Source of the DNA: Deltaproteobacteria bacterium
GTDB lineage: Bacteria > Myxococcota_A > UBA9160 > JAFDDA01
Direction of reading: 5' to 3'
Assembly (NCBI GenBank): GCA_019311105.1
Contig: JAFDDA010000020.1
Span: 14,550-78,549 of the forward strand
Length of the DNA: 64,000 nt
The position numbers and the translations under genes are program-made. Each line of letters opens with the position of its first letter. Positions within the stretch are counted from its first letter, which is position 1. The notes under the pieces are model-generated. The model was not told the origin of the DNA, made no database searches, and saw only the letters and a list, made by a program, of their open reading frames with translations. Positions 38,498-52,115 of the stretch are shown piece by piece.

Positions 38498-39133
38498 TCA
38501 GCGAACGGTGGAGGCGAGGATCAGCTGCCCCCCGAAATAGAGCGGCAGGCCCCAGACTTTGTTCCAGAACGTGCGCGAGACGAACCGCTGGCGGGCCACG
38601 GCCAGGTCGGAGACGTAGAACGCGAGCGCGCCGATCGGGATTGCCGCGCGAGCGTCAGCGCCGAAGGTGCCCACGGCCAGCACGACCATGCTCGAGATGA
38701 CGAAGACGTAGGCCACCACCGGCCCGCGCATCGAACCCTCGACATGGGGCCAGAGCCAACGCAGCGCCACGCCGGCAACCGGCACCACGGCCAGCGCCGA
38801 ACCGCCGACATACGTCCACTCGACACCCCGCACGGCGAACGCCCCGGCAAAGGCGAGGTGACCCAACAGGAAGCTCACCAGCCCTGCGAGGAAACTCGCG
38901 CGTGCCGTCGGGATGAGCAGCACGTCGCCCCAGAAACAGAGCACCAACGCCCCCATCACCCAGTGGCCGTAGCTCGTGTCGCGCGCACCGGCGGCCCAGG
39001 CAGCCCCAAGGAACCCGAGCGAGGCGAGCGGTTTGAAGATCCAGATGCCCACACGCCAACCGCGCCACTCGGCATGGAGCAGCAAACCCAGCGAGACGAG
39101 GGTCACGGCGCAGCCGGCCTCGAAGCCAGTCAT
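38498..39133 (-). CDS. YhhN family membrane protein (lysoplasmalogenase family)
   Basis: Multi-TM with FKPLASLGFL..., LCFWGDVLL and FLLGHLAF blocks typical of YhhN. Its ATG overlaps the kinase TGA (ATGA at 39130-39133). Confidence 0.75.
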   Translation of the reverse strand: MTGFEAGCAVTLVSLGLLLHAEWRGWRVGIWIFKPLASLGFLGAAWAAGARDTSYGHWVMGALVLCFWGDVLLIPTARASFLAGLVSFLLGHLAFAGAFAVRGVEWTYVGGSALAVVPVAGVALRWLWPHVEGSMRGPVVAYVFVISSMVVLAVGTFGADARAAIPIGALAFYVSDLAVARQRFVSRTFWNKVWGLPLYFGGQLILASTVR

Positions 39134-40551
39134 GTCCGGCGCGACCGCAGGCGCTTGAAGGTCCCGGCTCGCGGCTCGCGCCGCGCGCACCACGGACAGA
39201 AGTGCCAGTAGTCCCGCGACACCGGCCAGCGACAGCGGGGACAGCGGTCGGAGAGTTCCGCGTGGCTCCAGAGGCGCCGTGGCTTTTGCTTGCACACGGG
39301 GCAGTAACGCATGAAGGGGCGCAGCTCGCCCGCGCAGCCGCGCTTCGTGCAGCGCCGTTCCGCGCGTGGGTCGTGGCGCGGTGGCCGCCCGTTGCCGGCG
39401 AAGCGGCCGGCGTAGCACCACGGGCATGCCGTCCACTCGGGTCGCACGCCGCGCTCGCACTCCGGGCAGACCAGCGGCGCGTTGGTGACGCCGCGGAAGG
39501 AGTTGTCCTTGCTGCCGCACCAGGGGCAGACGCTCATGGCCTCGGAGATGGCGCCGTCGCAGCGGTGGCAGCGGAAGCGCATGTCGAGCTTCGCGCCGTG
39601 CGCCTTGCGGAACACCTCCGCCTGGACCTCCAGGGGCGAAGTCGTCGGCGCCTTCTTCCGGGCGCCTTTCTTCTTGGGGCGTCGGGGTGCGGGCGCTTCG
39701 GCGCGGGCGAACGCCCGGGCCAGGGCCTGCTCGAGTTCCTCGCCGCTGGCGTAGCGCCGACGCGGCTCGAACTCGGCCGCCTTGCGTAGGACGGGCTGGA
39801 GGGGGGCCGGCACCTTCTTGGCAAAGCGCGCGTGCCCATCGAGAGGCCAGCGAAAGGGCCAGGTCGGCAGGACCCCGGTCAGCAGGTGATACACGATGAT
39901 GCCGAGCGAGAAGACGTCACTCCCGAGCCCGGGCCGGCCGTAGGCCTGCTCCGGCGCGATGAAGCCGAGCGTGCCGACGTCGGTGAAGTTGCGGGTCACG
40001 GGCGGGGCGAAGCGGGCCACGCCGAAGTCGCACAAGGCGAAGCGGCCGTCGGGGAAGACCAGGACGTTTTCGGGCTTCACGTCCCGGTGCATGATCTTGC
40101 GTTCGTGGGCGTAGGCGAGCGCGGCCGCCACATCGCGCATGACTCGCAGGGCCACATCGGGCGAGCGCCGCGCGCGGACGTAGGCACCGAGGTGGGTGCG
40201 GGCCAGCTCCGTCGCCATCACGAAGCGGCCGGCGATCCAATCGGCGTTCAGGATCTTCACGATGTTCGGGTGATCGAGGCGGCTCGCGATGCGCGCCTCG
40301 TGCTCGATCTCGTTGCGGCCCCACTCCCGGACCATGTCCTCGTGGACGACCTTGAGCGCCACGGCCTGGCGGACGACGGTATCGGTCGCTTTCCACACGT
40401 CGGCAAACGACCCGCTGCCGAGCCGGCTCTCCAGGCGATACTTGCCGAGTCGCGTTCCCCTGCGCAGCGTGCTCGCCACACGCCCTCCCTGTCTTGTGCG
40501 GGGACCCAACATAGCCCCACGGCCACCGGGTCGTGCCCTACAATCGCTCAT
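39130..40551 (-). CDS. Ser/Thr protein kinase with four C-terminal zinc-ribbon modules
   Basis: Hanks kinase motifs LGSGSFADVWKA, AVALKV, HRDVKPEN, DFG and APE. Four CxxC-x10/11-CP[WV]C units follow. The alternative start ATG 40512 is more likely if a promoter is needed between the divergent genes. Confidence 0.85.
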   Translation of the reverse strand: MSDCRARPGGRGAMLGPRTRQGGRVASTLRRGTRLGKYRLESRLGSGSFADVWKATDTVVRQAVALKVVHEDMVREWGRNEIEHEARIASRLDHPNIVKILNADWIAGRFVMATELARTHLGAYVRARRSPDVALRVMRDVAAALAYAHERKIMHRDVKPENVLVFPDGRFALCDFGVARFAPPVTRNFTDVGTLGFIAPEQAYGRPGLGSDVFSLGIIVYHLLTGVLPTWPFRWPLDGHARFAKKVPAPLQPVLRKAAEFEPRRRYASGEELEQALARAFARAEAPAPRRPKKKGARKKAPTTSPLEVQAEVFRKAHGAKLDMRFRCHRCDGAISEAMSVCPWCGSKDNSFRGVTNAPLVCPECERGVRPEWTACPWCYAGRFAGNGRPPRHDPRAERRCTKRGCAGELRPFMRYCPVCKQKPRRLWSHAELSDRCPRCRWPVSRDYWHFCPWCARREPRAGTFKRLRSRRT

Positions 40552-40553
40552 CC

Positions 40554-42113
40554 ATGAGCTGGCAGGAAGAGGTCGACGGGATCCGAGCGCGGCGCGAGCG
40601 GGCCGCGGAACACGGTGGCAAGCAGGCCGTCGAGCGCCAGCGCGCCAAGGGCCGCGGAACGGTCCGCGAGCGGATCGAGGCGCTGGCCGACTCGGGCAGC
40701 TTTCAGGAAGAGGGGCCCATCGCCGGGCACTCGGACTTCGACGGCGACGGCCAGCTCGTGGAGTTCACCCCCGCCAACTACGTGCTGGGCATCGCCCGGG
40801 TCGACGACCGCCCCGTGGTCGTCGGCGGCGAGGACTTCACGCTGAAGGGCGGCTCGCCCTCCCCCGCCGGCCTGCGAAAGAGCATCTGGTCGGAAGATCT
40901 GGCCCTTCGCTACCGCCTGCCCCTGGTGCGCTTCCTCGAAGGCGGCGGCGGGAGCGTCACCGGCGCACGCAGCAAGGGCGCCCCGCGGCCCATGGGCGAC
41001 CCGGCCGGGGCCCAACACCGGTTCGTTTCGATCGCCCGGGTGATGGGTGCCGTGCCGGTGGTGTCGGCGGCCATGGGGCCGGTGGCTGGGTTTCCGGCCG
41101 CCCGCCTGGTGGCCTCACACTTTTCGGTGATGACCCGCGACACGGCCCAGATCCTGGTTGGCGGCCCGGCCCTGGTCGAGCGGGCGCTCGGCGAGAAGAA
41201 GACCAAGGAGGAGCTGGGCGGCGCCGACGTCCACCTCAAGAATGGCGTCGTCGACAACGTCGCCGCAGACGAAGCCGACGCCGTGGCCCAGGTGCGCCGC
41301 TTCCTCTCCTATCTCCCGACGAACGTCTGGGAGCTGGCGCCGCGCGCCGAAACGGGCGACGCGCCGGATCGTCGCGAGGAAGCCCTGCTCGGGATCATCC
41401 CTCGCGATCGACGGCGCATCTTCGATGTGCGCAAGATGATCGGCCTGGTGGTGGACACGGGCTCGTTCTTCGAGATCGGCAGCGCCTCGGGGCGCGGCCA
41501 GGTGACCGGGCTCGCACGGGTCGACGGCCACTCCGTCGGCATCCTCGGCAACGATTCGCGTTTCTATGCAGGCGCCATGACGGACGACGGCGCGCGCAAG
41601 GTGCGCCGCTTCGTCGACCTCTGCGACACGTTCCACCTACCGATCGTCTCCTTCGTCGACGAGCCGGGGTTCATGATCGGCAGCGAGGCCGAGCGCGCGG
41701 GGACGATCCGCTACGGCGCGCAGACGCTGTTCGCGGTGGTGCAATCCACGGTGCCGTGGATCTCGATCCACGTGCGCAAGGCCTTCGGCGTGGCCGCGGC
41801 GGCCCACTTCGGCCCGAACGGGCGTGTGCTCGCGTGGCCCTCGGCCGAGCGCGGCGCCCTCCCCCTGGAGGGGGGTGTGGCCGTGGCCTTCCATCGCGAG
41901 ATCGCGGAGGCCGAAGACCCCCAGGCCCGACGCGACGAACTCGAGCGCGAGCTTGCCTCCCGTCGCAGGCCGCACGCCGCGGCCGAAGCCTTCGCCATCC
42001 ATGACATGATCGACCCTCGCGACACGCGCCCCGAGATTGCACGCTGGCTCTCCCTGCTGGGCCCGCAGCTCGAGCCACAGCGCGGTCCGCGCCAATACAC
42101 GGTGCGACCCTGA
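40554..42113 (+). CDS. Acyl-CoA carboxylase carboxyltransferase (beta) subunit
   Basis: MSWQEEVDGIRARRERA...RGTVRERIEALADSGSF and two crotonase-like CT halves. Start ATG 40554. Confidence 0.9.
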   Translation: MSWQEEVDGIRARRERAAEHGGKQAVERQRAKGRGTVRERIEALADSGSFQEEGPIAGHSDFDGDGQLVEFTPANYVLGIARVDDRPVVVGGEDFTLKGGSPSPAGLRKSIWSEDLALRYRLPLVRFLEGGGGSVTGARSKGAPRPMGDPAGAQHRFVSIARVMGAVPVVSAAMGPVAGFPAARLVASHFSVMTRDTAQILVGGPALVERALGEKKTKEELGGADVHLKNGVVDNVAADEADAVAQVRRFLSYLPTNVWELAPRAETGDAPDRREEALLGIIPRDRRRIFDVRKMIGLVVDTGSFFEIGSASGRGQVTGLARVDGHSVGILGNDSRFYAGAMTDDGARKVRRFVDLCDTFHLPIVSFVDEPGFMIGSEAERAGTIRYGAQTLFAVVQSTVPWISIHVRKAFGVAAAAHFGPNGRVLAWPSAERGALPLEGGVAVAFHREIAEAEDPQARRDELERELASRRRPHAAAEAFAIHDMIDPRDTRPEIARWLSLLGPQLEPQRGPRQYTVRP

Positions 42114-42163
42114 AGCGCCGAGGTGCGAGCCTGAAGCGCCGAGGTGCGACCCTGAAGCGCTGG
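42101..42163. repeat. Three tandem copies of a 21-bp unit at a gene junction
   Basis: GGTGCGA[C/G]CCTGAAGCGCCGA at 42101-42121 and 42122-42142, and 42143-42163 with the last 3 nt diverged. Copy 1 contains the carboxyltransferase TGA stop. Confidence 0.9.
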
Positions 42164-42202
42164 CGCGGATTCAGCGCGCAATGCGTCGCGATCTGGGCGG
42201 CC

Positions 42203-44134
42203 GTGGCGGCATCTCTGGCACTCGGTTGTGGAGGAGCGGAAGAAGTCGAAGCACCCGTGGTCGCGCCACCGGGCATCCCGGAACCGGGGCCGCGCTACGA
42301 ACGCGGCGCTCACGCCCGCCGGGAGATGTTCGACGCCCTGCGCAGCGACGCCGACAACACCCGCCATCCCTCCGACGGCGGCGGTCGGGCATGGGTGGAG
42401 TCGAGCCGTGCGGCCCGTGCATCCGGCCATGGCCAGTGGACCCTTCTCTATGAAGCGGGGCCCCACGGTGTGGCCGTGGGCGGCCGCATCCTGCTCCAGG
42501 TCTCCCCGTTCTGGCACTGGAGCACTCCCCAGACGCGCGAGCCCCGAGCGCCGGGCTTCACGACCGTCGAGTCCCTGGCAGAGGGCGTCGAGCTGGCCGC
42601 CGAGACACTCGACCAACAGCTCCTCGGCATCGAGGTCGGCGGGCGCGCCCTCGGCCCGGGCGAACGCATCCGGATCGTCTACGGCGCAGGCGAGGCCGGC
42701 GCCCGGGCCGACCGCTTCGCCGAACGCGAGTCCCGCTTCTTCGTGGCAGTGGACGGCGACGGCGACGGCGTGCGCGAGTGGATCGATGAATCGCCCGCCG
42801 TCGACGTTGCCGCCGGCGACGCGGCGCGCCTGGTCCTGCATCTGCCTGCCGTGGCCCGGCCGGGCGAAGAGACCTTCCTCACCGTGGCAGTGCTCGATGG
42901 CGGCGCGAGCGCCGGAGTCGACTTTGCAGGCGAAGTCACCTTCGGCGATCGCGCCGAGAGCGTGAGCCTGGCCGACACCCTGGTCTTCACGGGCGCCGAG
43001 GCCGGCGTCGCACGCGTGCCGATCCGGGTGGATGCCGAGGGGATCGTCCGCGTCGAAGCGCGCGGCCCCGAGGGCCTGGAGGGGATCTCCAACCCGATGC
43101 GCGTCTCCTCCGAGGCGCCGCGCATCCGCTTCGGCGACCTGCATGGGCACTCGAACCTCTCCGACGGCACGGGGACCCCGGAGGACTACTTCCGCTACGC
43201 GCGAACGGCCGCCGGGCTCGACTTCGTTTCGCTCACCGACCACGACCACTGGGGGATCCCCTTTCTCGACGCTCGGCCCGAACTGCGCGCCCGCATCCGC
43301 CGCGCAGCCGAAGCAGCACACGAACCCGGCCACTTCGTGACGCTCCACGGATACGAGTGGACGAGCTGGCTCTACGGCCATCGCCACGTCCTCTACTTCG
43401 ACGACGGCGGCGGGCCCTGGATGTCTTCGCTCTCGCCGGAGTTCGAGACGCCGGAGCAGCTGTGGGCCGCCTTGCGCGGAAAACCCGCCATGACGCTCGC
43501 CCACCACTCGGCGGGCGGGCCCATTGCCACCGACTGGAGCATCCCCCCCGACCCGGAACTCGAGCCGCTGACCGAGGTCGTGAACGTCCACGGCAGCAGC
43601 GAGGCACCCGATTCGCCGGGGCCGATCTACGCGCCCGTGGCCGGGAACTTCGTGCGCGATGCGCTGAACCGCGGCTACGCCCTCGGGTTCGTCGGCAGTG
43701 GCGACTCCCACGACGGCCACCCCGGCCTCGCCCACATCGGGAGCGCATCGGGCGGCCTCGCCGCGGTCGTGGCCGAAGACCTCACCCGCGAGGGCCTGCG
43801 CCGTGCGCTCCAGGACCGGCGCACCTACGCCACCAACGGCCCCCGCATCCTTCTCGATGTGAAGCTCGCGGGGCACGCCATGGGGCGAAGCCTCGCCGTC
43901 GCGAGCCTCGGCGACGAGCCGGGCCTCGTCGTGGACGTGGTCGGCACGGCCGAGCTCGATCGCGTCGACATCGTCCGCAGCGGTGCCGTGGTCGCCTCCG
44001 CCGAGGGCGAAGGCCGGAGCGACCTGCTGATCAGCTACCCGGTTCGGGCCCTCCGGGCGGGCGAGTACGTCTACGTACGCGTCGTGCAACGCGACGGCGG
44101 CGCCGCCTGGTCGAGCCCCTTCTTCCTGGAATGA
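42203..44134 (+). CDS. PHP-domain (CehA/McbA-like) metallohydrolase, probable lipoprotein
   Basis: FGDLHGHSNLSDG...SLTDHDHW...GSGDSHDGHPG metal ligands and an N-terminal beta-rich domain. GTG 42203 leaves only MAASLALGC before the lipobox Cys. An upstream in-frame CTG 42152, preceded by GAGG, would give a full signal peptide. Confidence 0.75.
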   Translation: MAASLALGCGGAEEVEAPVVAPPGIPEPGPRYERGAHARREMFDALRSDADNTRHPSDGGGRAWVESSRAARASGHGQWTLLYEAGPHGVAVGGRILLQVSPFWHWSTPQTREPRAPGFTTVESLAEGVELAAETLDQQLLGIEVGGRALGPGERIRIVYGAGEAGARADRFAERESRFFVAVDGDGDGVREWIDESPAVDVAAGDAARLVLHLPAVARPGEETFLTVAVLDGGASAGVDFAGEVTFGDRAESVSLADTLVFTGAEAGVARVPIRVDAEGIVRVEARGPEGLEGISNPMRVSSEAPRIRFGDLHGHSNLSDGTGTPEDYFRYARTAAGLDFVSLTDHDHWGIPFLDARPELRARIRRAAEAAHEPGHFVTLHGYEWTSWLYGHRHVLYFDDGGGPWMSSLSPEFETPEQLWAALRGKPAMTLAHHSAGGPIATDWSIPPDPELEPLTEVVNVHGSSEAPDSPGPIYAPVAGNFVRDALNRGYALGFVGSGDSHDGHPGLAHIGSASGGLAAVVAEDLTREGLRRALQDRRTYATNGPRILLDVKLAGHAMGRSLAVASLGDEPGLVVDVVGTAELDRVDIVRSGAVVASAEGEGRSDLLISYPVRALRAGEYVYVRVVQRDGGAAWSSPFFLE

Positions 44135-45129
44135 GCGAGCCGGCCGTCTCGGTCCTGCTGCCGGTCCGCGACGCCGCCGCGACCCTCGCGGCGTGCCTCC
44201 GAAGCATTGCCCGCCAGACGGAGACGAGTTTCGAGTGCGTCGTGGCGGACGACGGCTCGTGCGATGCATCGCTCGCGATTGCGCGCGACCGCGCCGCTCG
44301 CGACCCACGCTTCCGGGTTCTCGAACTCCCCGCCACGGGGCTCGTCGCCACCCTGAACACGGGCCTCACGTCGTGCCGGGGCCGCTACATCGCGCGCATG
44401 GATGCCGACGACCTCATGCACCGCGAACGCCTCGAACTGCAACGCGCCCAGCTCGAAGCCGACCCCGAGCTGGCCGGCGTCGGATGCCACGTGCGGGTCT
44501 TCCCCCGTGCCGGGCTCTCGGATGGCATGCGTGCCTACGAAGCCTGGCTCACATCCCTCGCGTCGCCCGAAGACGTCGCCCGAGACGTCTTCATCGAATG
44601 TCCCCTCGCCCACCCCACCTGGCTCGTCCGGCGCCGCGTGTTCGAAGCCCTCCCCTATCGCGACCGCGGCTGGCCCGAAGACCAGGATTGGATCCTGCGC
44701 GCCCACCGGCGGGGGCTACGGCTCGGCGTCGTCCCGCGGCGCCTCGTCTCATGGCGACGCGGCGGGCTCTCGGACCACGACCCGCGCTACGCCATCGAGC
44801 GATTCGTTGCGTGCAAGGCCCATCATCTGGCGCGCAGCTTCTTACCCGACCACCCGCACTACGTCCTTTGGGGCTATGGCGGGACCGGCCGCGCGTTGCG
44901 CAGGGCCCTGGCCCGAGAGGGCCGGCTGCCGAGCCACATCGTGGAGCTTCACCCCGGGCGTCTGGGCCAGACGATCCACGGCGCTCCGGTGATCGAACCC
45001 AGTGGCCTCGCGGGGCTCGATGGCCCGATCGTCGTGTCGGTGGCCGGCGCAGGGCCGCGCGGTCAGATCCGCCAAGCGCTCGCGACACTCGGCCGCGTAG
45101 AGGGCGAAGACTTCGTTTGCGCGGCGTGA
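44131..45129 (+). CDS. Glycosyltransferase family 2
   Basis: VSVLLPVRDAAATL...VVADDGSCD...RMDADD (DxD). ATGA overlap with the upstream stop. Confidence 0.85.
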   Translation: MSEPAVSVLLPVRDAAATLAACLRSIARQTETSFECVVADDGSCDASLAIARDRAARDPRFRVLELPATGLVATLNTGLTSCRGRYIARMDADDLMHRERLELQRAQLEADPELAGVGCHVRVFPRAGLSDGMRAYEAWLTSLASPEDVARDVFIECPLAHPTWLVRRRVFEALPYRDRGWPEDQDWILRAHRRGLRLGVVPRRLVSWRRGGLSDHDPRYAIERFVACKAHHLARSFLPDHPHYVLWGYGGTGRALRRALAREGRLPSHIVELHPGRLGQTIHGAPVIEPSGLAGLDGPIVVSVAGAGPRGQIRQALATLGRVEGEDFVCAA

Positions 45130-45138
45130 TGCCGCGCC

Positions 45139-45372
45139 TCAGCCGAGCGCGAGTAGAGCCTGATGAAGGTCGGCAACCACACCGGCGAGGTCGTGTCGGG
45201 CTTCGACGTGCTTGCGCGCCGCGTGGCTCTCGGCCGCGAGCGGCGCCCGGTGCATCGCGCGCATCATCTCCGCCAGCGCCTCGGGACGCGCGCGATGGCG
45301 TGCCACCGGAGCAACGGTGTGGGTGTGGCCGTCCGGGTCGGCCGGGACGAGCCGCCCCCCGCACTCGTTCAT
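45139..45372 (-). CDS. Hypothetical small His-rich protein (weak call)
   Basis: 77-aa MNECGGRLVPADPDGHTHTV...HDLAGVVADLHQALLALG downstream of the rhomboid gene on the same strand. GC3 is high but I recognise no family. Confidence 0.25.
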   Translation of the reverse strand: MNECGGRLVPADPDGHTHTVAPVARHRARPEALAEMMRAMHRAPLAAESHAARKHVEARHDLAGVVADLHQALLALG

Positions 45373-45419
45373 CGGCGACCCATCGGTTGGACGCCGCCGC
45401 TGGCCTTCGGTAGCCGGCG

Positions 45420-48400
45420 CTAGAGAACCCGCAGCACCTCTCGCTCGTAGGCTTCGAGCGAATCGAACATCTGGAACGGGTCGCCCACGGCGCTCGACGG
45501 GTTGGGGAGCGCGAGCGCCTCGCTCTTCTGCAAGAGGTCGGCGATCCAGTTCTTCAAAGCCTGGAATCCGTTCTCCTCGCCAGGCATGAGCTTGCACGGG
45601 TCGAACCGATCGCTGCTCAGGCGCACGATCTTCAGAGGCTGCCCTCCGGCCCCCAGCCAGTTGGTAACGAGGTCGATCACCACGACGGGCTTCGACCGGA
45701 GGCCACGGACCCCGGCGACCGAGATGGCGTCGATGCGCTCGAGCCCGAGCTGTGCCTTGCCCCGCTCGCCTACATCGAGGGTGATGGATTCGTCGCTGAG
45801 GGCGAGTGGGATCGCCTCCATCTTCTTGAGGGTGCGGGGCGGCGGCGGGGCCTCGATCTCCGGCAGGGTCCGCGGCGGCTCGAAGACGGACGACGACGAC
45901 AGGTCGAGAGGCGGCGCGCCCTCGAGGCCGGGCAGCGTCTGGGCACCGAGGCTCGCCATGTCGAGGGTCTTCCCGAAATCGGGCGCACCCGTATCGTCGA
46001 GGGGGGCGGTTGCCGGCGTCACAACGCTCTCGTCCGCCAGGGGGATGGGGTCAGCAGCGAGACCCAGGGGCGGCGGTGCGGTGAGTCCGAGATCCGGGAT
46101 GCTGGCGTCGAGATCGGGTGCATCGTCGTCCAGGCCCGGCGCGAGATCCGGCGTGCTCTCTTCGAGGTCTGGAACGATCGGCTCGTCGAGCGGCGCGCTC
46201 CCGGGCGAACCCGACGGGCTCGGGTCGTACTCGATCACGGGCATCACGGGCCCGAGGTCCCGCCCGCTGCCCCCGAGGTCGGGAGCGCTGCGATCGAGTT
46301 CGGGCGTACTGCGATCGATCTCCGGCCCCAGATCGGGGTCGCTGCTCCCGAGGTCCGGCGTGCTGTGGTCCAACTCGGGCGCCAAGTCGGACGCGACATC
46401 CGGCGCAATCACACCGTGGTCGGAAGAAAGATCGGGAGTGCTCGCGTCGTGGTCGGAAGGGAGTTCGGGAGTGCTCACGTCGTGGTCCGAGACGAGCTCG
46501 GGTGTGCTGGCCCCCAGGTCCATCTCCCCGGCGTCCAGGTCCAGTGCGTCAGCGTCGAGCTGGTCCTCGCTCGCCTGCGGAGACCTCGACCCTTCATCCA
46601 GAGCCGGTACGGCCTCGATCGGGGGCGCCGCGCCCAGGGAAGGGTCGGAGGTTTCGAGGCCCGAACCCATGGACCCGCCCGGCGAAAGATCGAGGGCGTC
46701 GCCGGCGGTGACTTCGGCCGGTTCATCGGCGTCGGCCGAGCCGGTCGACTCGAGGTCGTAGCTGTGGACTCCGGGCGGCCCGGTGAGATCTTCGAGTTCG
46801 AAGGGCTCCGCGTTCAGCGCATCCCCCTCGAGATCGACCTCGCCCGGCTGCGCACCGCCATCGAGATCGACTTCGCCCCGCTGCGTGTCGCCATCGAGAT
46901 CGACTTCGCCCCGCTGCGTGTCGCCATCGAGAGCGACCTCGCCCGGCTGCGCATCGCCATCGAGAGCGACTTCGCCCCGCGGCTCGTCGTCTTGAAGATC
47001 GACCTCACCGGGTTGGGCCGGCGCCGCATCCGTGGCCGCAGCCGGAGACTCGGTCTGATGGAAGTCGTAGCCTTGGCCGAACAACGGGCCGGAGCGGCCG
47101 TTCGTTTCTTCGCCCACCTCTTCGGCGACGGTCTCGTGCTCGCGGTCGCTCACTCCGACGAGCTGTTGGCGCAGCGTCTCCACCTCTTCCCGCTCCGCGG
47201 GGTCGAGGTCGGTCGTCGCCAGGGCGGTCTGGGCCGCAGCGAGAGCCATGTCGGTGTCGAGATCCTGGGCGAGACGGGCGAGCTTGTGAGCCGTCCCACC
47301 CGAGACGGCGCCGCAGCTTCCCTCGAGCACGCGGCGCATGGAGAAGCTGGCCAGGTCGTACTCGCCGGCTTCGATCAGCAGGCCGCCGATGCGGACCTCG
47401 ATCGCCGATTCCAACTCGAAGCCGGGCGCCCGCTGCGTGAGCTCGCGCCAGTGTTGCAAGGCGAGCTCTTTCTGGCCCGAGGTCACCTCTTCCCGTAGGA
47501 CGCACACGAGCGCGCCGGCCGCTTCGTCGGCCCGGCCCACCACCGTCGTCGCATCCCAGTACGCCAGGGCGGCGTCCTGGTTCTCGGGGTGTCGGGCCAC
47601 TTCGCTGGCCAGGAGCTCCACCGCCTCCTCGATCCGCCCGTCCTCGCGCGCGGCCATGGCGCGGTCAAGGATCGGGTTCGACCGCGTGGTGAGCTTTTCT
47701 TCGATCTTCGGGTTGATGATCCGCTCTTCGATCCGAAACAGCTTCATCACGATCGCGAAGGCGATGCCCCAGCCGAACCCACCCACGTGGGCCCACGTGG
47801 AGAACTCCGCGCTGACCGGCTCGATGCCCGGCGCACCGTGGGTCAAGAGATAGTCCGCAGCCAGGTAGGCGCCGCCGTACAGGGGGAGCGTGACCCAACC
47901 CCGCGCGGTGAACTTGCCGCCGAAGGGCGGGATCACGAAGTACTGGAAGCGGATCGGCACCGTTGCGAAACGAATGAGGAAGGCCCCGGCCAGGGCCGCA
48001 GCCACGCCGGACGCGCCGCCCAGCGCCTCGGTCGCGTCCGGATCGAGGGTCGCGTAGCCGACCGCGCCGGCCACCGCACCGGTCAACACGAAGACGAGGT
48101 AGATCCCCCGCCCCCAGGCCTCTTCGAGGAACAAGCCCGCGAGCAACACGAGGGCGAGGTTCGACAGCAGATGGATCCAATCCTCGTGCACGAGCACGTA
48201 GGTGAGGAAGCTCGAATCGGGCGAGGACATCGCATCCGGGAAGAAGCCCAGGCGGTAGAACGAGTGGCTCTCCATGGCCTGGAAGACGGCGTCGACCTTC
48301 GTGTCGAAATCGATCTGGTCGTGGTGTCGCACGAAGTCGGGGATTCCGGGCGATCCGGAGTGGCGCAGGTCGTTTCGGAAGACGTCCGCCTCGAAGGCCA

Positions 48401-48629
48401 CCTGGTCTTCGCCGAACATCTCCGCCAGGTCGTCGTCCACGTTCACGTAGGGGTGCGCGACGAAGTAGATCCAGGCGTCTTCGATCGCGGCTTCGGTGCG
48501 CACGTCCACTTCGCGGTCGGCGGTGCGGTGATGCACGAAGACCACGACACAGGCCAGCAGCAAGCCGAGCGTCACCCAGGGCGGGCGTCGCCCACTGCGG
48601 GCTTCCTCATTCAGGGGCAGGACGATCAT
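45420..48629 (-). CDS. Rhomboid intramembrane serine protease fused to a TPR-like region, acidic repeat arrays and a C-terminal globular domain
   Basis: GGAG SD. Six-TM rhomboid core with WIHLLSN, GGASGV (catalytic Ser) and WAHVGGFGWG (catalytic His), followed by about 700 aa of cytoplasmic tail. Single 1069-aa ORF. Confidence 0.8.
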   Translation of the reverse strand: MIVLPLNEEARSGRRPPWVTLGLLLACVVVFVHHRTADREVDVRTEAAIEDAWIYFVAHPYVNVDDDLAEMFGEDQVAFEADVFRNDLRHSGSPGIPDFVRHHDQIDFDTKVDAVFQAMESHSFYRLGFFPDAMSSPDSSFLTYVLVHEDWIHLLSNLALVLLAGLFLEEAWGRGIYLVFVLTGAVAGAVGYATLDPDATEALGGASGVAAALAGAFLIRFATVPIRFQYFVIPPFGGKFTARGWVTLPLYGGAYLAADYLLTHGAPGIEPVSAEFSTWAHVGGFGWGIAFAIVMKLFRIEERIINPKIEEKLTTRSNPILDRAMAAREDGRIEEAVELLASEVARHPENQDAALAYWDATTVVGRADEAAGALVCVLREEVTSGQKELALQHWRELTQRAPGFELESAIEVRIGGLLIEAGEYDLASFSMRRVLEGSCGAVSGGTAHKLARLAQDLDTDMALAAAQTALATTDLDPAEREEVETLRQQLVGVSDREHETVAEEVGEETNGRSGPLFGQGYDFHQTESPAAATDAAPAQPGEVDLQDDEPRGEVALDGDAQPGEVALDGDTQRGEVDLDGDTQRGEVDLDGGAQPGEVDLEGDALNAEPFELEDLTGPPGVHSYDLESTGSADADEPAEVTAGDALDLSPGGSMGSGLETSDPSLGAAPPIEAVPALDEGSRSPQASEDQLDADALDLDAGEMDLGASTPELVSDHDVSTPELPSDHDASTPDLSSDHGVIAPDVASDLAPELDHSTPDLGSSDPDLGPEIDRSTPELDRSAPDLGGSGRDLGPVMPVIEYDPSPSGSPGSAPLDEPIVPDLEESTPDLAPGLDDDAPDLDASIPDLGLTAPPPLGLAADPIPLADESVVTPATAPLDDTGAPDFGKTLDMASLGAQTLPGLEGAPPLDLSSSSVFEPPRTLPEIEAPPPPRTLKKMEAIPLALSDESITLDVGERGKAQLGLERIDAISVAGVRGLRSKPVVVIDLVTNWLGAGGQPLKIVRLSSDRFDPCKLMPGEENGFQALKNWIADLLQKSEALALPNPSSAVGDPFQMFDSLEAYEREVLRVL
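46416..46514. repeat. Three 33-bp coding repeats (STP[ED]L-x-SDH-x-x) inside the rhomboid gene
   Basis: The units begin CGTGGTCGGAAG / CGTGGTCGGAAG / CGTGGTCCGAGA on the plus strand. They encode STPELVSDHDV / STPELPSDHDA / STPDLSSDHGV. Confidence 0.8.
46812..47009. repeat. Six 33-bp coding repeats (GEV[DA]L[DQE]GD-x-x-x) inside the rhomboid gene
   Basis: TCGAGATCGAC-type cores recur at 46828, 46861, 46894, 46927, 46960 and 46993. The two central units are identical. They encode GEVDLQDDEPR, GEVALDGDAQP, GEVALDGDTQR, GEVDLDGDTQR, GEVDLDGGAQP and GEVDLEGDALN. Confidence 0.9.
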
Positions 48630-48726
48630 GCCAACTCCGCGAACCGCCGGCCGCGCGCACGGATCGCGCGCAGATGTACGGCTCCGCTTGAACTCAACGG
48701 AAGAACGGGCCTGGTTCTGAAGGGTT

Positions 48727-50097
48727 TTACGGAGTGGCGGGAGGCTCCGCAGCGGCTGCGAGCGAGGCCCCGGCGGCCAGCAGGCGCAGGCTCGCGCCGG
48801 GCTCGAGAGTCGAGTTCAGGACCTCGTAGTGGTGGTGCCCGTTCGCGGCCCGAAACCGGTCCGGGTGCGGCAGGTAGCGGAGCCAACCCCCGACGTTCGA
48901 AAGCAATGCAGAGCCCTCCGCGCGGCCGGCCTTCCAGGCGAGCCCGAGCTCTGCGGTGACTTCGGCGGGCAGGCCGAGCCAGGACGCGTCGCCCAGGCGC
49001 AGCACGCGGACCGCAACCTCCGGCACCACCCCCCCCGCCACGCGCGCCGCCGTGCGATCGCGAACGAACAGACGAACCCGGGCGACCCGTTCGCGCACCT
49101 CATCGGCCGGGAGGCCTGCAGTCCGTTCCTGTTCGAGCGCGTAGGCCTGGGAGACACGCAGCGGCTCGGCGGGGTCGAGGCCCAGTGCCATCGACGCATC
49201 TCGTGCGCGCGCCGCAAGCGATGCCTTGCGTGCGGCATCGTCGGCGCCGTCGTGGATCGGGATGCGAATGCGCTCGAGCCTCGCGGCGACCGCGAACGAC
49301 GCGCCGAGCGTCGCGCCCTGGGCTGCGGAGACCACGGCCTCCCCCACTTCGCGTCCCAACGTCTCGCATGCGGAAAACCCTGCGCCGACGCTCTGCCCCG
49401 GGATGGAGAGGTCCTGGATCCCTCGCGTCCGGGGGTCGACGTCCGCATGGGCGCCGAGCAGGAAGATCGGGACCGCACCGGGGAATACCTCGCGAACCCG
49501 TTCGGCCGAGGCACCCGGCCAGTCCGCCGACCACTCGAGGTTCTCGTGCCCGAGAACGGTGGGGTGTGTTCCGTGGACATAGGCCACGGCGATCGTCCCG
49601 CCCGCCTCGGCATCCACGCGCAACACGACGACGCTCGGGTCGACGGCGCCGCCGGGCTCGCGACGGTTGTGGCCGATCGTCGCTTCACCGCTACCGAAGC
49701 CGGCGCGCGCCGGAACGGTCGCTGCCATCGCGGCGCGGGCCGCCTCCTCGGCCGCCGCGTGGATCGGCATCATCCACTCGGGCGGCGCATCACCGGCGAG
49801 GCTCGCAGCGGCGCCGGTCTCTGGCCCGGAGTGCGTGTGGGTGGTGGCGACCCAGATCTCCTCTGCGGCGAGGCCGGTCGCCCCCGCGAGACGCTCGACC
49901 AACGCCTCGGCGTGCGGGACGGCCAGCAGACAGACCTCGAGTTGCAGGAGCAACACACGTCCCCGCTCCTCCAGATACACAGCCCGCGCGTGGAGCGGGT
50001 CGTGCTCCCCCGCAGCCCGGCCAACGCGGGCGCCATAGCCCATCATCGGGGCGCCGGCGGGCAGGGGAAGTCGAACCTCGGCGGCTCCAGCCTTCAT
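48727..50097 (-). CDS. Neutral/alkaline ceramidase-like hydrolase, no signal peptide
   Basis: MKAGAAEVRLPLPAGAPMMGYGARVGRAAGEHDPLHARAV and TTHTHSGPE blocks of the ceramidase_alk family. Start trimmed to ATG 50097. Confidence 0.8.
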   Translation of the reverse strand: MKAGAAEVRLPLPAGAPMMGYGARVGRAAGEHDPLHARAVYLEERGRVLLLQLEVCLLAVPHAEALVERLAGATGLAAEEIWVATTHTHSGPETGAAASLAGDAPPEWMMPIHAAAEEAARAAMAATVPARAGFGSGEATIGHNRREPGGAVDPSVVVLRVDAEAGGTIAVAYVHGTHPTVLGHENLEWSADWPGASAERVREVFPGAVPIFLLGAHADVDPRTRGIQDLSIPGQSVGAGFSACETLGREVGEAVVSAAQGATLGASFAVAARLERIRIPIHDGADDAARKASLAARARDASMALGLDPAEPLRVSQAYALEQERTAGLPADEVRERVARVRLFVRDRTAARVAGGVVPEVAVRVLRLGDASWLGLPAEVTAELGLAWKAGRAEGSALLSNVGGWLRYLPHPDRFRAANGHHHYEVLNSTLEPGASLRLLAAGASLAAAAEPPATP

Positions 50098-50215
50098 GAG
50101 CGAAGGCTTAGCCCACGGCGCCTTCCTGGGCGAAGCCTTGCCGGGCTCGGCGCGCTCGCGCCCCGTCTCGCGCGGCCGCGAGCGTCGACCTAGACTGCGC
50201 GTCGAAGGAGCCCCC

Positions 50216-51364
50216 ATGCGGCGAACCCTCTTCGGCGAAGAACACGACCTCTTTCGCGAACAGTTCCGGCGCTTCATCGCAGACGAGATCGAGCCGCGCA
50301 TTCCCGAGTGGAACGAGCGCGGCATGAGCGACCGCGAATCCTGGCGGCGCGCCGGCGAGAATGGCTACCTCGGCGCCTGCGCACCGGAGGCGTACGGCGG
50401 CGCAGGCGCCGACTTCAGCTACGACATGATCATCATGGAAGAGATGGCCTACGCCCGGGCCCACGGCATGATGATCTCCCTGCACTCCTCCATCGTGCTC
50501 CCCTACCTGTTGTCGTTCGGGAGCGAAGAACAGAAGCGGAAGTACGCGCCGGGATGTGTGTCCGGCGAGACCCTGCTCGGGATCTGCATGACCGAACCCG
50601 CAGCGGGCTCCGACCTCCAGGGCATCCAGACCCGCGCAGAGCGCGACGGCGACCACTACATCCTGAACGGCGCCAAGACCTTCATCAGCAACGGCCAGAT
50701 CGGCGACCTGTTCATCGTGGTGGCGAAGACCGACAGCGAGGCTGCCAAGGCGTCGCGCGGCCTCAGCCTGCTGCTGGTCGAGGCCGACACGCCGGGCTTC
50801 GTTCGCGGCCGAAGGCTCGACAAGCTCGGGCTGCGGGGCCAGGACACGAGTGAGATCTTCTTCGAAGACTGTCGCGTCCCCGCTGGCAACGTCCTGGGCG
50901 AGGAGGGCCGGGGTTTCTATCAGTTGATGGAGAAGCTCCAGCAGGAGCGCATCTGCATCGCCGTCGCATCGATCGCCTCGGCACGCCGGTCCCTCGACGA
51001 CACGGTGGCCTACGTGAAGGAGCGCCATGCCTTCGGCCAGCCGATCGCGCAGTTCCAGAACACGCAGTTCACCCTGGCCGAGCTCGCCACCGAGGTCGAG
51101 GTCGGCCAGGCATTCACCGACAATGTCGTGGCAGCCCACATCCGTGGCGAGGACGTGGTGAGCGAGGCGAGCATGGCCAAATGGTGGGCGAGCGATCTGC
51201 AGAAGCGCGCGGCCGCCGAGTGCCTCCAGCTCCACGGCGGGTACGGCTTCATGAGCGAGTATCCGATCTCGACCGACTACGCGGATGCAGCCGTGCAATC
51301 CATCTACGCGGGAACCAACGAGATCATGAAGCGCATCATCGCCCGCCGCATGGGCCTCGGCTGA
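50216..51364 (+). CDS. Acyl-CoA dehydrogenase
   Basis: GAAGGAG SD and ATG 50216. ACAD blocks CMTEPAAGSDL and QLHGGYGFMSEYPI. Confidence 0.9.
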   Translation: MRRTLFGEEHDLFREQFRRFIADEIEPRIPEWNERGMSDRESWRRAGENGYLGACAPEAYGGAGADFSYDMIIMEEMAYARAHGMMISLHSSIVLPYLLSFGSEEQKRKYAPGCVSGETLLGICMTEPAAGSDLQGIQTRAERDGDHYILNGAKTFISNGQIGDLFIVVAKTDSEAAKASRGLSLLLVEADTPGFVRGRRLDKLGLRGQDTSEIFFEDCRVPAGNVLGEEGRGFYQLMEKLQQERICIAVASIASARRSLDDTVAYVKERHAFGQPIAQFQNTQFTLAELATEVEVGQAFTDNVVAAHIRGEDVVSEASMAKWWASDLQKRAAAECLQLHGGYGFMSEYPISTDYADAAVQSIYAGTNEIMKRIIARRMGLG

Positions 51365-51440
51365 GCGCGGGCCCGCCCACCCCGAAATGAGCTGGACGAA
51401 AACCCTCAAGGCCTGAGCCGCAAGCTCCGATTCCCCCCGC

Positions 51441-52115
51441 GTGGAGCCCCTCTCCGATCAAGGATTACCGGGGACCGATCCGGAACGGGTGGTCGTCGAG
51501 TGCTGCGCCGCCGGCACGCCCGCCGTCGTGACCTTTCGCGAAAGCGGCGGGAACGGGCTGCGTGCGGTCTTCACCGCGTTCCGAAACGAGCGTGTCGAGT
51601 TCGAGATGACCGACGACCCGCCGCGCGAGCCCGCCGATGGCACGGTCTGCCACGTATCCTTCCTGCACCGGGGCCGCCCCGTCACCTTCACAGCGCCTCT
51701 GCGCTCGGCGGAAGTCGACCGGGGACGCATGCGTGTGCAGGTGGGGTTGCCGGGCCAGATCAGCAGCGAGGGGCTGCGGAGCGCGTTCCGGTTGCCCGGC
51801 GGCTCGGGACCGAACGACGTGGATCTCGTCGCCGACGATGGCATCACCTGGCCCGCTGAGCTGGTGAACCTGTCTCTCACGGGCATGCTGCTGCGCTTTG
51901 CGGGGGATGCGCCCACCTTGATGCCGGACCAGGTGGTGGAACTCTCCGTGAAGGTGGCCGAAGAACACGTGCGTCTCGCAGGCGTCGTGCGTCGCGTGAC
52001 GCCCGACGAAGTCGGGATCTTCTTCCCCGACGCCGTCTCGGACTCGCCCGAGAACCCGATCCGATGCGTGGTCGCCGCCCTCGAACGCGACTGGCACTCC
52101 CGCCTGCGCCGCTAG
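51441..52115 (+). CDS. PilZ-domain (c-di-GMP binding) protein, YcgR-like two-domain layout
   Basis: RSAFR (RxxxR) is followed about 26 aa later by NLSLTG (D/NxSxxG). GTG start. Confidence 0.7.
   Translation: MEPLSDQGLPGTDPERVVVECCAAGTPAVVTFRESGGNGLRAVFTAFRNERVEFEMTDDPPREPADGTVCHVSFLHRGRPVTFTAPLRSAEVDRGRMRVQVGLPGQISSEGLRSAFRLPGGSGPNDVDLVADDGITWPAELVNLSLTGMLLRFAGDAPTLMPDQVVELSVKVAEEHVRLAGVVRRVTPDEVGIFFPDAVSDSPENPIRCVVAALERDWHSRLRR

Follow-up and report, generated by a model that had tools for sequence, protein, structure and literature searches.

What is the role of the long C-terminal tail of a giant bacterial rhomboid? Bacterial rhomboids are nearly ubiquitous, and few of them have known functions. 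The case analyzed here is a gene for a 1069-amino acid (aa) protein in the genome of a Deltaproteobacteria bacterium (contig JAFDDA010000020.1, positions 14,550 to 78,549; this whole stretch of 64,000 nucleotides is referred to below as the window). In this protein (hereafter the query), a rhomboid core is followed by a helical domain resembling tetratricopeptide repeats (TPR), an acidic, Pro-rich linker and a globular C-terminal domain (CTD). As judged from sequence comparison, the query belongs to a previously undescribed lineage of the rhomboid superfamily that is characterized by an obligate, novel cytoplasmic tail and by recurrent loss of the catalytic residues.

We propose, with a probability of about 0.45, that the query combines the roles of protease and adaptor, its tail serving to recruit a partner. 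Under this scenario, the rhomboid core would engage a transmembrane (TM) client in the inner membrane, and the TPR platform at the membrane face, together with the CTD on its polyanionic tether, would capture a cytoplasmic partner or the cytoplasmic part of the client. The clades with an intact Ser-His dyad, the query included, would also cleave the client, and those without the dyad would keep the scaffold or adaptor role only.

Conservation of the fusion and recurrent loss of the catalytic residues

The gene (45420..48629, minus strand) consists of 1069 codons and a stop, starts with an ATG at 48629 that is preceded by GGAG about 6 nt upstream, and encodes a product identical to GenBank MBW2445285.1, from a 'Deltaproteobacteria bacterium' metagenome-assembled genome (MAG), with "rhomboid family intramembrane serine protease" as its only public annotation. 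An earlier description made from the letters of the DNA (the first-pass annotation) reported an uninterrupted 1069-aa open reading frame (ORF) at this position and gave no strand; this ORF is a genuine, intact gene. Its length by itself is no proof because DNA with 70% GC, as in the window, yields long spurious antisense ORFs, up to 865 aa near the gene. The GC content at codon positions 1, 2 and 3 (0.73/0.48/0.84) is that of a coding sequence and holds in each 100-codon block, repeats included. The same single-frame architecture is found in 9 close relatives from independent assemblies (48-64% identity), which share with the query the N-terminus MIVLPLxEEARSGRR, and in about 80 distant homologs, including a complete 5.0-Mb chromosome. 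Another protein of 1069 aa, encoded on a second contig, falls into the query's cluster at 90% identity. The tandem repeats of the linker are prone to assembly errors and, given the long spurious ORFs in such DNA, one could suspect that separate genes were joined by a frameshift or a misassembly within the repeats, or that the ORF arose by chance in GC-rich DNA. Because independent assemblies keep the fusion and the second contig carries a 1069-aa member, such an artifact is excluded for all practical purposes; the splitting frameshift or stop that the first-pass annotation named as a possible refutation was not found.

The CTD was used as the profile in an exhaustive search of 1.84 billion representatives (clusters at 50% identity; E<=1e-3). 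It is present in 775 representatives, 291 of them with E<=1e-30, and lies at the extreme C-terminus in every case. The architecture was inspected in the best 150 of the 775 matches. The Pfam Rhomboid domain is detected in all 10 sampled full-length CTD proteins and, with hidden Markov models of the family, the rhomboid, TPR and CTD modules occur together in 89 of the 91 proteins of at least 600 aa, the two exceptions being a partial protein and a missed TPR match. All shorter CTD matches are compatible with truncation. Two candidates for a stand-alone CTD protein were rejected: P0015 is truncated at the end of its contig, and the contig of P0162 is full of split, frameshifted genes. At least among the 150 best matches, the rhomboid-TPR-CTD fusion is, by all indications from the profiles, obligate. 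With at least 775 clusters at the 50% identity level, the CTD defines a large domain family that has no annotation, and the query, for which the first-pass annotation had suggested a survey of related genomes, is not a one-off. The same annotation considered the architecture uncharacterized, and no published description of it was found in the literature searches.

Among species-representative genomes, the CTD is found in 29 loci, and because these come from 29 different MAGs, a single copy per genome is suggested; no paralog of the rhomboid fusion was found in the window. The MAGs are mostly labeled Myxococcota or 'Deltaproteobacteria', and all represent uncultured bacteria. No cultured organism with a family member appeared in any search, and word-indexed homology searches with the CTD and TPR profiles retrieved almost only short fragments and no named cultured organism. 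Within the set L009, L010, L011, L013, L016, L017 and L019, several MAGs are labeled Spirochaetaceae or Spirochaetales, one of them with the isolate name 'HK-STAS-MYXO-51'; one further locus is labeled Candidatus Binatia and another Desulfobacterales. These non-Myxococcota labels look doubtful for a locus of the Myxococcota type and may be taxonomic mislabels or may come from mis-binned contigs.

Among the 89 full-length members, 33 keep HxxxN along with the catalytic Ser and His, 11 keep the Ser-His dyad and not HxxxN, and 45 lack Ser and/or His; family-wide, the catalytic Ser is retained in 66/91 and the catalytic His in 48/91 proteins. The losses occur in an unambiguous motif context, with WAHVGG replaced by WAQLGG, WAFGGG or WALLGG, and GASG by GAAG or GAGG. 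Unlike the catalytic residues, scaffold residues such as E169, G205 and G288 hardly vary across the family. A neighbor-joining (NJ) tree contains three intact clades and distributes the degenerate members over at least three large clades of their own, and Fitch parsimony on this tree requires a minimum of 11 state changes. The clade of the query keeps all catalytic residues, which rules out the classification of the query itself as a pseudoprotease, a label for which 45 of the 89 members do qualify. The public databases do not make this distinction: the dead members P0029 (QSAQ) and P0100 (HSTS, MCG8590770.1) are annotated as 'rhomboid family (intramembrane) serine protease'.

The modules of the protein differ sharply in their response to the loss of catalysis. 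In the TM core, the mean pairwise identity is 50.2% between intact members, 28.7% between dead members and 29.8% between intact and dead members; the corresponding values for the CTD are 47.5%, 45.7% and 44.5%. Overall, no other module is as conserved as the CTD, which has a mean pairwise identity of 45% and contributes about 27 of the 63 columns conserved at 85% or more across the family, vs 9 such columns in the whole rhomboid core. Because about half of the relatives have lost the active site and kept the tail, the common selected function of the family probably resides in the tail.

Recurrent loss of catalysis under a conserved tail invites comparison with the iRhoms and Derlins, which lost the catalytic residues, kept the rhomboid fold and acquired extra domains for client or partner handling (PMC6451368, PMC12615303). 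The family described here resembles them in that 45 of its 89 members, although not the query, lack catalytic residues. Unlike the eukaryotic iRhoms and Derlins, the accessory domains of which are unrelated, it shows recurrent loss within one bacterial orthologous group. How rhomboid pseudoproteases evolved from active enzymes is recognized as an unsettled question (PMC7231995). The family offers a natural experiment on this question, with intact and dead orthologs under one tail and an end domain that is more conserved than the catalytic core, and it makes testable the idea that the role as an adaptor is older than proteolysis and can persist once catalysis is lost.

Modules of the query and related rhomboids

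The first-pass annotation had read the protein as a complete six-TM rhomboid core carrying HxxxN, GASG and AHVGG, followed by TPR-like helices, about 350 aa of acidic, Pro-rich repeats and a globular, conserved domain of roughly 130 aa, with the six-TM topology placing the whole tail in the cytoplasm. The order and the nature of these modules, and the cytoplasmic placement, hold up in the analysis below, including the acidic repeats; the length given for the acidic region does not, this region being larger, at 434 aa.

The rhomboid core spans residues 1-300 (47730..48629; like the gene, all parts of the protein given here are on the minus strand), as delineated from PF01694, hydropathy, loop charges and the GlpG match of the structural model of the relative P0076. 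Pfam PF01694 (Rhomboid) matches residues 141-295 with E=7e-17 and 62.4 bits, against a cut-off of 22.6. A 17-aa N-terminus, predicted to be cytoplasmic, leads into TM1 (18-33), the first, predicted periplasmic loop (L1, 34-141), which is unusually long (108 aa) and acidic (8 K/R vs 23 D/E), and then TM2-TM6. Three catalytic motifs are invariant in the query's clade: HLLSN with H153 and N157, the oxyanion-hole motif of TM2 (residues 153-157, 48159..48173); GASG in TM4 (205-208, 48006..48017) with the catalytic Ser207 (codon 48009-48011); and AHVGG in TM6 (280-284, 47778..47792) with the catalytic His281 (codon 47787-47789). The loop between TM4 and TM5 (L4) contains a conserved cytoplasmic insert at residues 220-246 (47892..47972), RFATVPIRFQYFVIPPFGGKFTARGWV, in which R220, F221, F228, Y230, F231, G238, F240 and W245 are invariant in the clade and which is predicted to form a beta-hairpin (strands 132-141 and 144-153 in the P0076 model).

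Positively charged residues cluster at the N-terminus, in L4 (4 K/R in 27 residues, with no acidic ones) and after TM6 (6 in 25), and are absent from the short loops L3 and L5; hydropathy reveals no hydrophobic segment in the query after residue 300. Because no TM segment follows residue 300, and given this K/R distribution and the N-in/C-in topology of GlpG-type cores, we infer that the whole tail is cytoplasmic. The six-TM, GlpG-type fold was checked on an AlphaFold2 (AF2) model of the relative P0076, not on the query chain; the core of this model matches GlpG in Foldseek with E=2.5e-5 and a TM-score of 0.69-0.79 on the target. The profile, the family-level fold and the full set of catalytic motifs identify the predicted protein as a member of the rhomboid family, MEROPS S54, and, with Ser, His and HxxxN all kept, it is probably an active protease.

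The query shares with GlpG (E. coli and H. influenzae) the 6-TM fold and the HxxxN, GxSG and AHxGG motifs, and differs from it in the much longer L1 (108 aa) and in the conserved cytoplasmic beta-hairpin of L4. GlpG itself carries a cytoplasmic domain at the N-terminus and lacks a C-terminal tail. The GlpG equivalog models TIGR04239 and NF008155 were rejected, with 16.1 and 14.9 bits vs cut-offs of 250 and 335. The rhombosortase model TIGR03902 is the best NCBIfam match of the core, yet reaches only 28.3 bits vs a cut-off of 84, and was likewise rejected. Rhombosortases have a dedicated class of clients: these short proteins without a tail are paired with GlyGly-CTERM proteins (PMC3237569). 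The query is a bacterial rhomboid like them; unlike them, it shows no GlyGly-CTERM tail or pairing.

YqgP (GluP) of B. subtilis combines protease activity with a catalysis-independent role as an adaptor of FtsH ('pseudoprotease' function) that is exerted via its cytosolic domain; this domain is N-terminal, and the TPR domain is C-terminal and extracellular (PMC7231995), a layout that would imply a seventh TM helix. YqgP is the direct precedent for the dual role proposed here. What the query has in common with YqgP, itself a bacterial rhomboid, is an intact active site and sizeable domains outside the membrane, one of them a TPR domain. The two differ in that only 17 residues stand ahead of TM1 in the query and a seventh TM helix is lacking, in that the query's TPR domain comes straight after TM6 and is apparently cytoplasmic, and in the acidic, disordered tether and the CTD, which YqgP does not have. 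Outside the rhomboid core, no sequence relationship between the two proteins was detected. The query is therefore not of the YqgP/GluP type, with no N-terminal domain, no seventh TM helix and the TPR domain on the opposite side of the membrane.

The cytoplasmic C-terminal tail of the eukaryotic rhomboid RHBDL4 contains short motifs for p97 and ubiquitin. Conceptually, RHBDL4 is the closest analog of a recruiting tail; unlike it, and with no homology between the tails, the bacterial proteins combine folded TPR and CTD modules with a far longer acidic linker. RHBDL4 is an active protease of the endoplasmic reticulum and works with the cytosolic AAA ATPase p97 in the degradation of membrane proteins (PMC9437926).

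The TPR-like helical solenoid, continuous with TM6, covers about residues 301-500 (47130..47729) and is recognized by profiles, the model and Foldseek. The matches of the query to TPR_2, TPR_19 and TPR_14 (E=5e-4 to 5e-3) are all under the Pfam gathering scores; TPR_19 is matched by 10/10 clade members, with a best E of 1.7e-5. A PDB sequence-profile search with this domain yielded weak TPR matches only (EccA3, PA4667, LapB; E>=0.03). In the P0076 model, about 13 helices with a pLDDT (the AF2 per-residue confidence score) above 95 emerge straight out of TM6, and this solenoid matches CTPR, EMC2, OGT, MamA and PilF in Foldseek (E=4e-4 to 3e-3). The TPR assignment appears to hold at the level of the fold and the family, and is sub-threshold for the query sequence by itself.

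P0076 is a short-linker member of the family (622 residues), the AF2 model of which was built from 89 sequences and has a pLDDT of 87.8 and a pTM (predicted TM-score) of 0.60, with the linker-equivalent segment below a pLDDT of 50, that is, disordered in the model. Three docked domains would be expected to give a pTM of about 0.8, and an independent rhomboid and TPR domain about 0.3. Because a rigid rhomboid-TPR unit with an undocked CTD would give a pTM of about 0.60, the rhomboid and TPR domains are likely to form one rigid body (about 410 of the 622 residues of P0076), with the CTD free on its tether.

The CTD, residues 935-1069 (135 aa; 45423..45827), was delineated by AF2 and the profile search. 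Its AF2 model (pLDDT 86.4, pTM 0.83) consists of six to seven strands and a long helix, and the most conserved motifs are DLVxNW, RLRSDRFDP, LPDP, GxPF and YxREVL. A match to a well-known module with an already described rhomboid fusion, which the first-pass annotation had named as a refutation of novelty, was not encountered in Pfam, NCBIfam, the PDB sequences or Foldseek against PDB. Specifically, in 9 members there is no Pfam match to the CTD at E<=10, except for one chance match with E=0.27; no NCBIfam model matches the tail; the PDB sequence-profile search yielded chance matches only (MB21D2, a JmjC protein), with a best E of 0.17; and Foldseek against PDB and BFVD found nothing significant. 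The weak top Foldseek matches in PDB are mostly PH-superfold domains (FACT PH, ICAP1 PTB, dynamin PH, Dok2 PH, MTMR6 GRAM), with a best E of 0.13 and TM-scores of at most 0.40, so that a PH-like fold is the best guess for the modeled CTD, a lead rather than a result. A PilZ-like CTD was considered, on account of the string D-x-x-S-x-x-G and of a PilZ gene at a distance of about 3 kb, and dropped; the PilZ motif is DxSxxG, the spacing in the CTD does not fit, and there is no Pfam PilZ match.

The strong conservation of the CTD might also reflect ligand binding. In a sensor-gated protease, the CTD, perhaps with the TPR domain, would bind a ligand or a metabolite and switch proteolysis, as the metal-binding domain of YqgP does for MgtE. 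The most conserved CTD residues indeed lie in loop motifs that resemble a binding site (RLRSDRFDP, DLVxNW, LPDP, GxPF), the active site of the query is complete and, in YqgP, the N-terminal domain binds Mn/Zn and potentiates cleavage (PMC7231995). A purely regulatory domain, however, should decay once there is nothing left to regulate, and about half of the family has lost the dyad with the CTD under the same constraint; moreover, no known ligand-binding fold or motif was detected in the CTD. We therefore consider this possibility open to serious doubt.

The acidic, Pro-rich linker comprises residues 501-934 (434 aa; 45828..47129) and is presumed to be intrinsically disordered, in accord with the model of P0076. 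It contains 23% D/E, 13% P and 2% K/R, with a net charge of -91 (computed over residues 501-930). At residues 541-602 (46817..47006), Tandem Repeats Finder identifies a 33-bp repeat (5.0 copies, 88% matches, score 237) that encodes six 11-aa GEV[A/D]L[D/E/Q][G/D] units. Next to it, inside the otherwise unalignable linker, lies the clade motif GDALNAEPFELEDL (residues 602-615; 46785..46826), with the consensus GDxLNAxPFELDDL, which occurs in 9/9 clade members and in 0/80 others and looks like a clade-specific docking motif. Farther along, 15 xP[D/E][L/V/I/F] motifs (STPEL, STPDL, SAPDL) are distributed over residues 709-885 (45972..46505), a region in which 33-bp and 21-bp tandem repeats occur at 46251-46508. 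As a family-wide docking motif, xP[D/E]L was rejected: with 15 copies in the query vs 0-2 in most members, it is essentially private to the query and two relatives.

Over the 89 full-length members, the linker length varies from 19 to 474 aa (median 143), the query having the second longest linker. The linker composition is kept family-wide (means of 21% D/E, 6% K/R and 14% P), and the sequence is not. Because the family linkers range from 19 to 474 aa, the 'giant' size of the query appears to be a lineage-specific linker expansion. The entire tail is anionic, with median net charges across the family of -9 for the TPR domain, -24 for the linker and -2 for the CTD.

Conservation of composition, and not of sequence or length (19-474 aa), together with recent tandem-repeat expansions that suggest selection on bulk properties, could mean that the tail is a spacer or localization device, in which the polyanionic tether is an entropic brush that keeps proteins or the nucleoid off and the CTD is an anchor to a membrane patch, a pole or a cytoskeletal element. 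Some of the PH-superfold domains that are the weak best fold matches of the CTD bind lipid. Some members, however, have linkers of only 19-45 aa, which excludes a brush as the function that the family conserves; the CTD, with a median net charge of -2, is neutral or weakly acidic, unlike the PH domains that bind anionic lipids; and the clade-conserved linear motif in the linker points to specific docking. A spacer or anchor role for the tail is, accordingly, very unlikely.

Gene neighborhood and candidate partners

The genes around the rhomboid gene in the window encode, in order, a Ser/Thr kinase (-), a carboxyltransferase (+), a DUF3604 protein (+), a family 2 glycosyltransferase (GT2, +), the rhomboid fusion (-), a ceramidase-like protein (-), an acyl-CoA dehydrogenase (ACAD, +) and a PilZ-domain protein (+). 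The DUF3604 gene (42152..44134, plus strand) encodes a PHP metallohydrolase of the CehA-McbA type with a lipoprotein signal, KRWRGFSAQCVAIWAAVAASLALGC (Pfam E=1.5e-14; NCBIfam NF038032, 101 bits vs a cut-off of 80). The GT2 gene (44131..45129, plus strand; 332 aa; Pfam Glycos_transf_2, E=9e-26) is convergent with the rhomboid gene, and its ATG overlaps the DUF3604 stop by 4 nt (ATGA).

In 18 of 29 related loci, and also in the window, DUF3604, the most widely conserved neighbor, is adjacent to the rhomboid-like gene; GT2 is adjacent in 13 of the 29. The loci without DUF3604/GT2 are for the most part short or truncated, and only L026 and L029 lack both despite ample flanking sequence. The DUF3604 association comes in three arrangements (divergent, convergent and separated), the divergent pair being the commonest, and spans intact and dead clades. 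The ordinary flanking genes (ACAD, PilZ, carboxyltransferase, kinase) are common to only 1-2 loci. Co-transcription of the rhomboid gene with DUF3604/GT2 is excluded because the genes are not co-directional. These neighboring envelope genes are the most concrete lead to a partner or client of the family, and a DUF3604 lipoprotein together with a GT2 is the candidate pathway that the family offers.

If the neighborhood is taken at face value, the rhomboid could be an escort or maturation factor for an envelope pathway that involves the DUF3604 lipoprotein and GT2, a bacterial counterpart of iRhom escorting ADAM17. The association persists through rearrangements and in intact as well as dead clades, in a setting where the other flanking genes are not conserved; the lipobox Cys of the signal is found in 17/17 DUF3604 copies examined; and the DUF3604 and GT2 genes overlap in the window. 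As a precedent, iRhom2 is described as an essential cofactor of the membrane-tethered protease ADAM17 (PMC11248996). On the other side, this evidence is confined to the neighborhood, in which the rhomboid gene runs opposite to the other two; both are missing from L026 and L029; and no functional literature on DUF3604 was found. A lipoprotein signal peptide is, furthermore, not a typical rhomboid substrate. The escort role, in which the core would handle the lipoprotein or its signal peptide, or distort the bilayer for a lipid-linked intermediate, and the TPR domain and CTD would hold the cytoplasmic GT2, seems unlikely.

Recurrent loss and neighborhood can also be combined into a bacterial counterpart of the iRhom/Derlin transition that is still in progress, in which the ancestral function of a single-copy lineage would be client handling by a cytoplasmic recruiting arm made up of the TPR domain and the tethered CTD, wired to the periplasmic DUF3604 lipoprotein and GT2, with proteolysis repeatedly dispensed with. 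We hold this synthesis to be improbable; if it is true, the CTD would be a new partner-capture domain and the core an escort or a membrane-distorting chaperone for an envelope pathway.

Several considerations weigh against the reading that we prefer, that of a protease and adaptor with a recruiting tail. The link with DUF3604 and GT2, which are transcribed in another direction than the rhomboid gene, is a conserved neighborhood only; a lipoprotein is no canonical rhomboid substrate; and there is no FtsH-like gene in the neighborhood. The CTD is without a significant structural or sequence relative. The geometry argument is indirect, consisting of pTM arithmetic, and the AF2 model is that of a 33%-identical relative without TM1, not of the query. 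Finally, the NJ tree is approximate, and the weaker CTD matches beyond the best 150 of the 775 could hold other architectures.

Other neighbors and minor observations

The start of the DUF3604 gene is unusual: at 42104..42226 (plus strand), there is no ATG, GTG or TTG upstream of the signal peptide KRWRGFSAQCVAIWAAVAASLALGC. The only start candidates are the three CTG codons at 42110, 42131 and 42152, within a 21-bp triplication that encodes GATLKRR, GASLKRR and GATLKRW; the first canonical start, a GTG at 42203, would remove the signal peptide. Either the gene uses a CTG start or the MAG contains a start-codon error. The GT2 gene lies inside a longer, 590-aa ORF (43357..45129) and fills the 1.3 kb beyond the rhomboid stop, which otherwise look empty. 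The 290-bp convergent intergenic region shows no site resembling a promoter or a terminator, and the window contains no tRNA genes or Rfam matches.

The ceramidase-like gene (48727..50097, minus strand; Pfam Ceramidase_alk, E=6e-9) encodes a remote homolog of neutral ceramidase (PDB 2ZWS, E=4.5e-4). The first-pass annotation was exact in describing it as a gene without a signal peptide that shares the strand of the rhomboid gene and lies 97 bp ahead of it; it is not the most widely conserved neighbor. The longest ORF starts with an ATG at 50325, and its first 76 residues are Arg/Ser-rich and unconserved in relatives; the ATG at 50097, which opens MKAGAAEVRLPLPAGAPMMGYG (MKAGAAEV), is the probable true start, and no signal peptide follows it. 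This ATG abuts the ATG at 50096 called for the divergent ACAD gene, the start of which is probably called too early (the Pfam match begins at residue 48). As a key partner, the ceramidase-like gene was rejected: loci with this gene upstream of the rhomboid gene and on its strand number only 5, all in the query's subclade, and the two are direct neighbors in L001 alone, a GT2 gene separating them in the other four, so that the association would be at most clade-specific.

The Ser/Thr kinase gene (39130..40551, minus strand; Pkinase E=8e-39), with a C-terminal double zinc ribbon (DZR E=2e-9), and the gene for the PilZ-domain protein (51441..52115, plus strand; Pfam E=2e-9) are within 6 kb of the rhomboid gene. 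Both are conserved beside it only in the closest genomes, and a functional link of either with the rhomboid is unlikely. One of these genomes is OZ245817.1 (locus L001, 3480439-3496861), a complete 5.0-Mb Myxococcota MAG chromosome that is fully syntenic with the window at 39130..52115 over nine genes, including those for the kinase, carboxyltransferase, DUF3604, GT2, rhomboid fusion, ceramidase-like protein, ACAD and PilZ, with 52-85% protein identity, and that could serve as the reference genome for the query's clade.

In one dead clade (L007-L011, L014, L020 and L028), the rhomboid-like gene is followed downstream by a convergent gene for an ExoIII-type (xth-like) nuclease of about 275 aa; the two are direct neighbors in several loci and at most about 1 kb apart in the others. 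At this place, the query's clade has GT2 and DUF3604.

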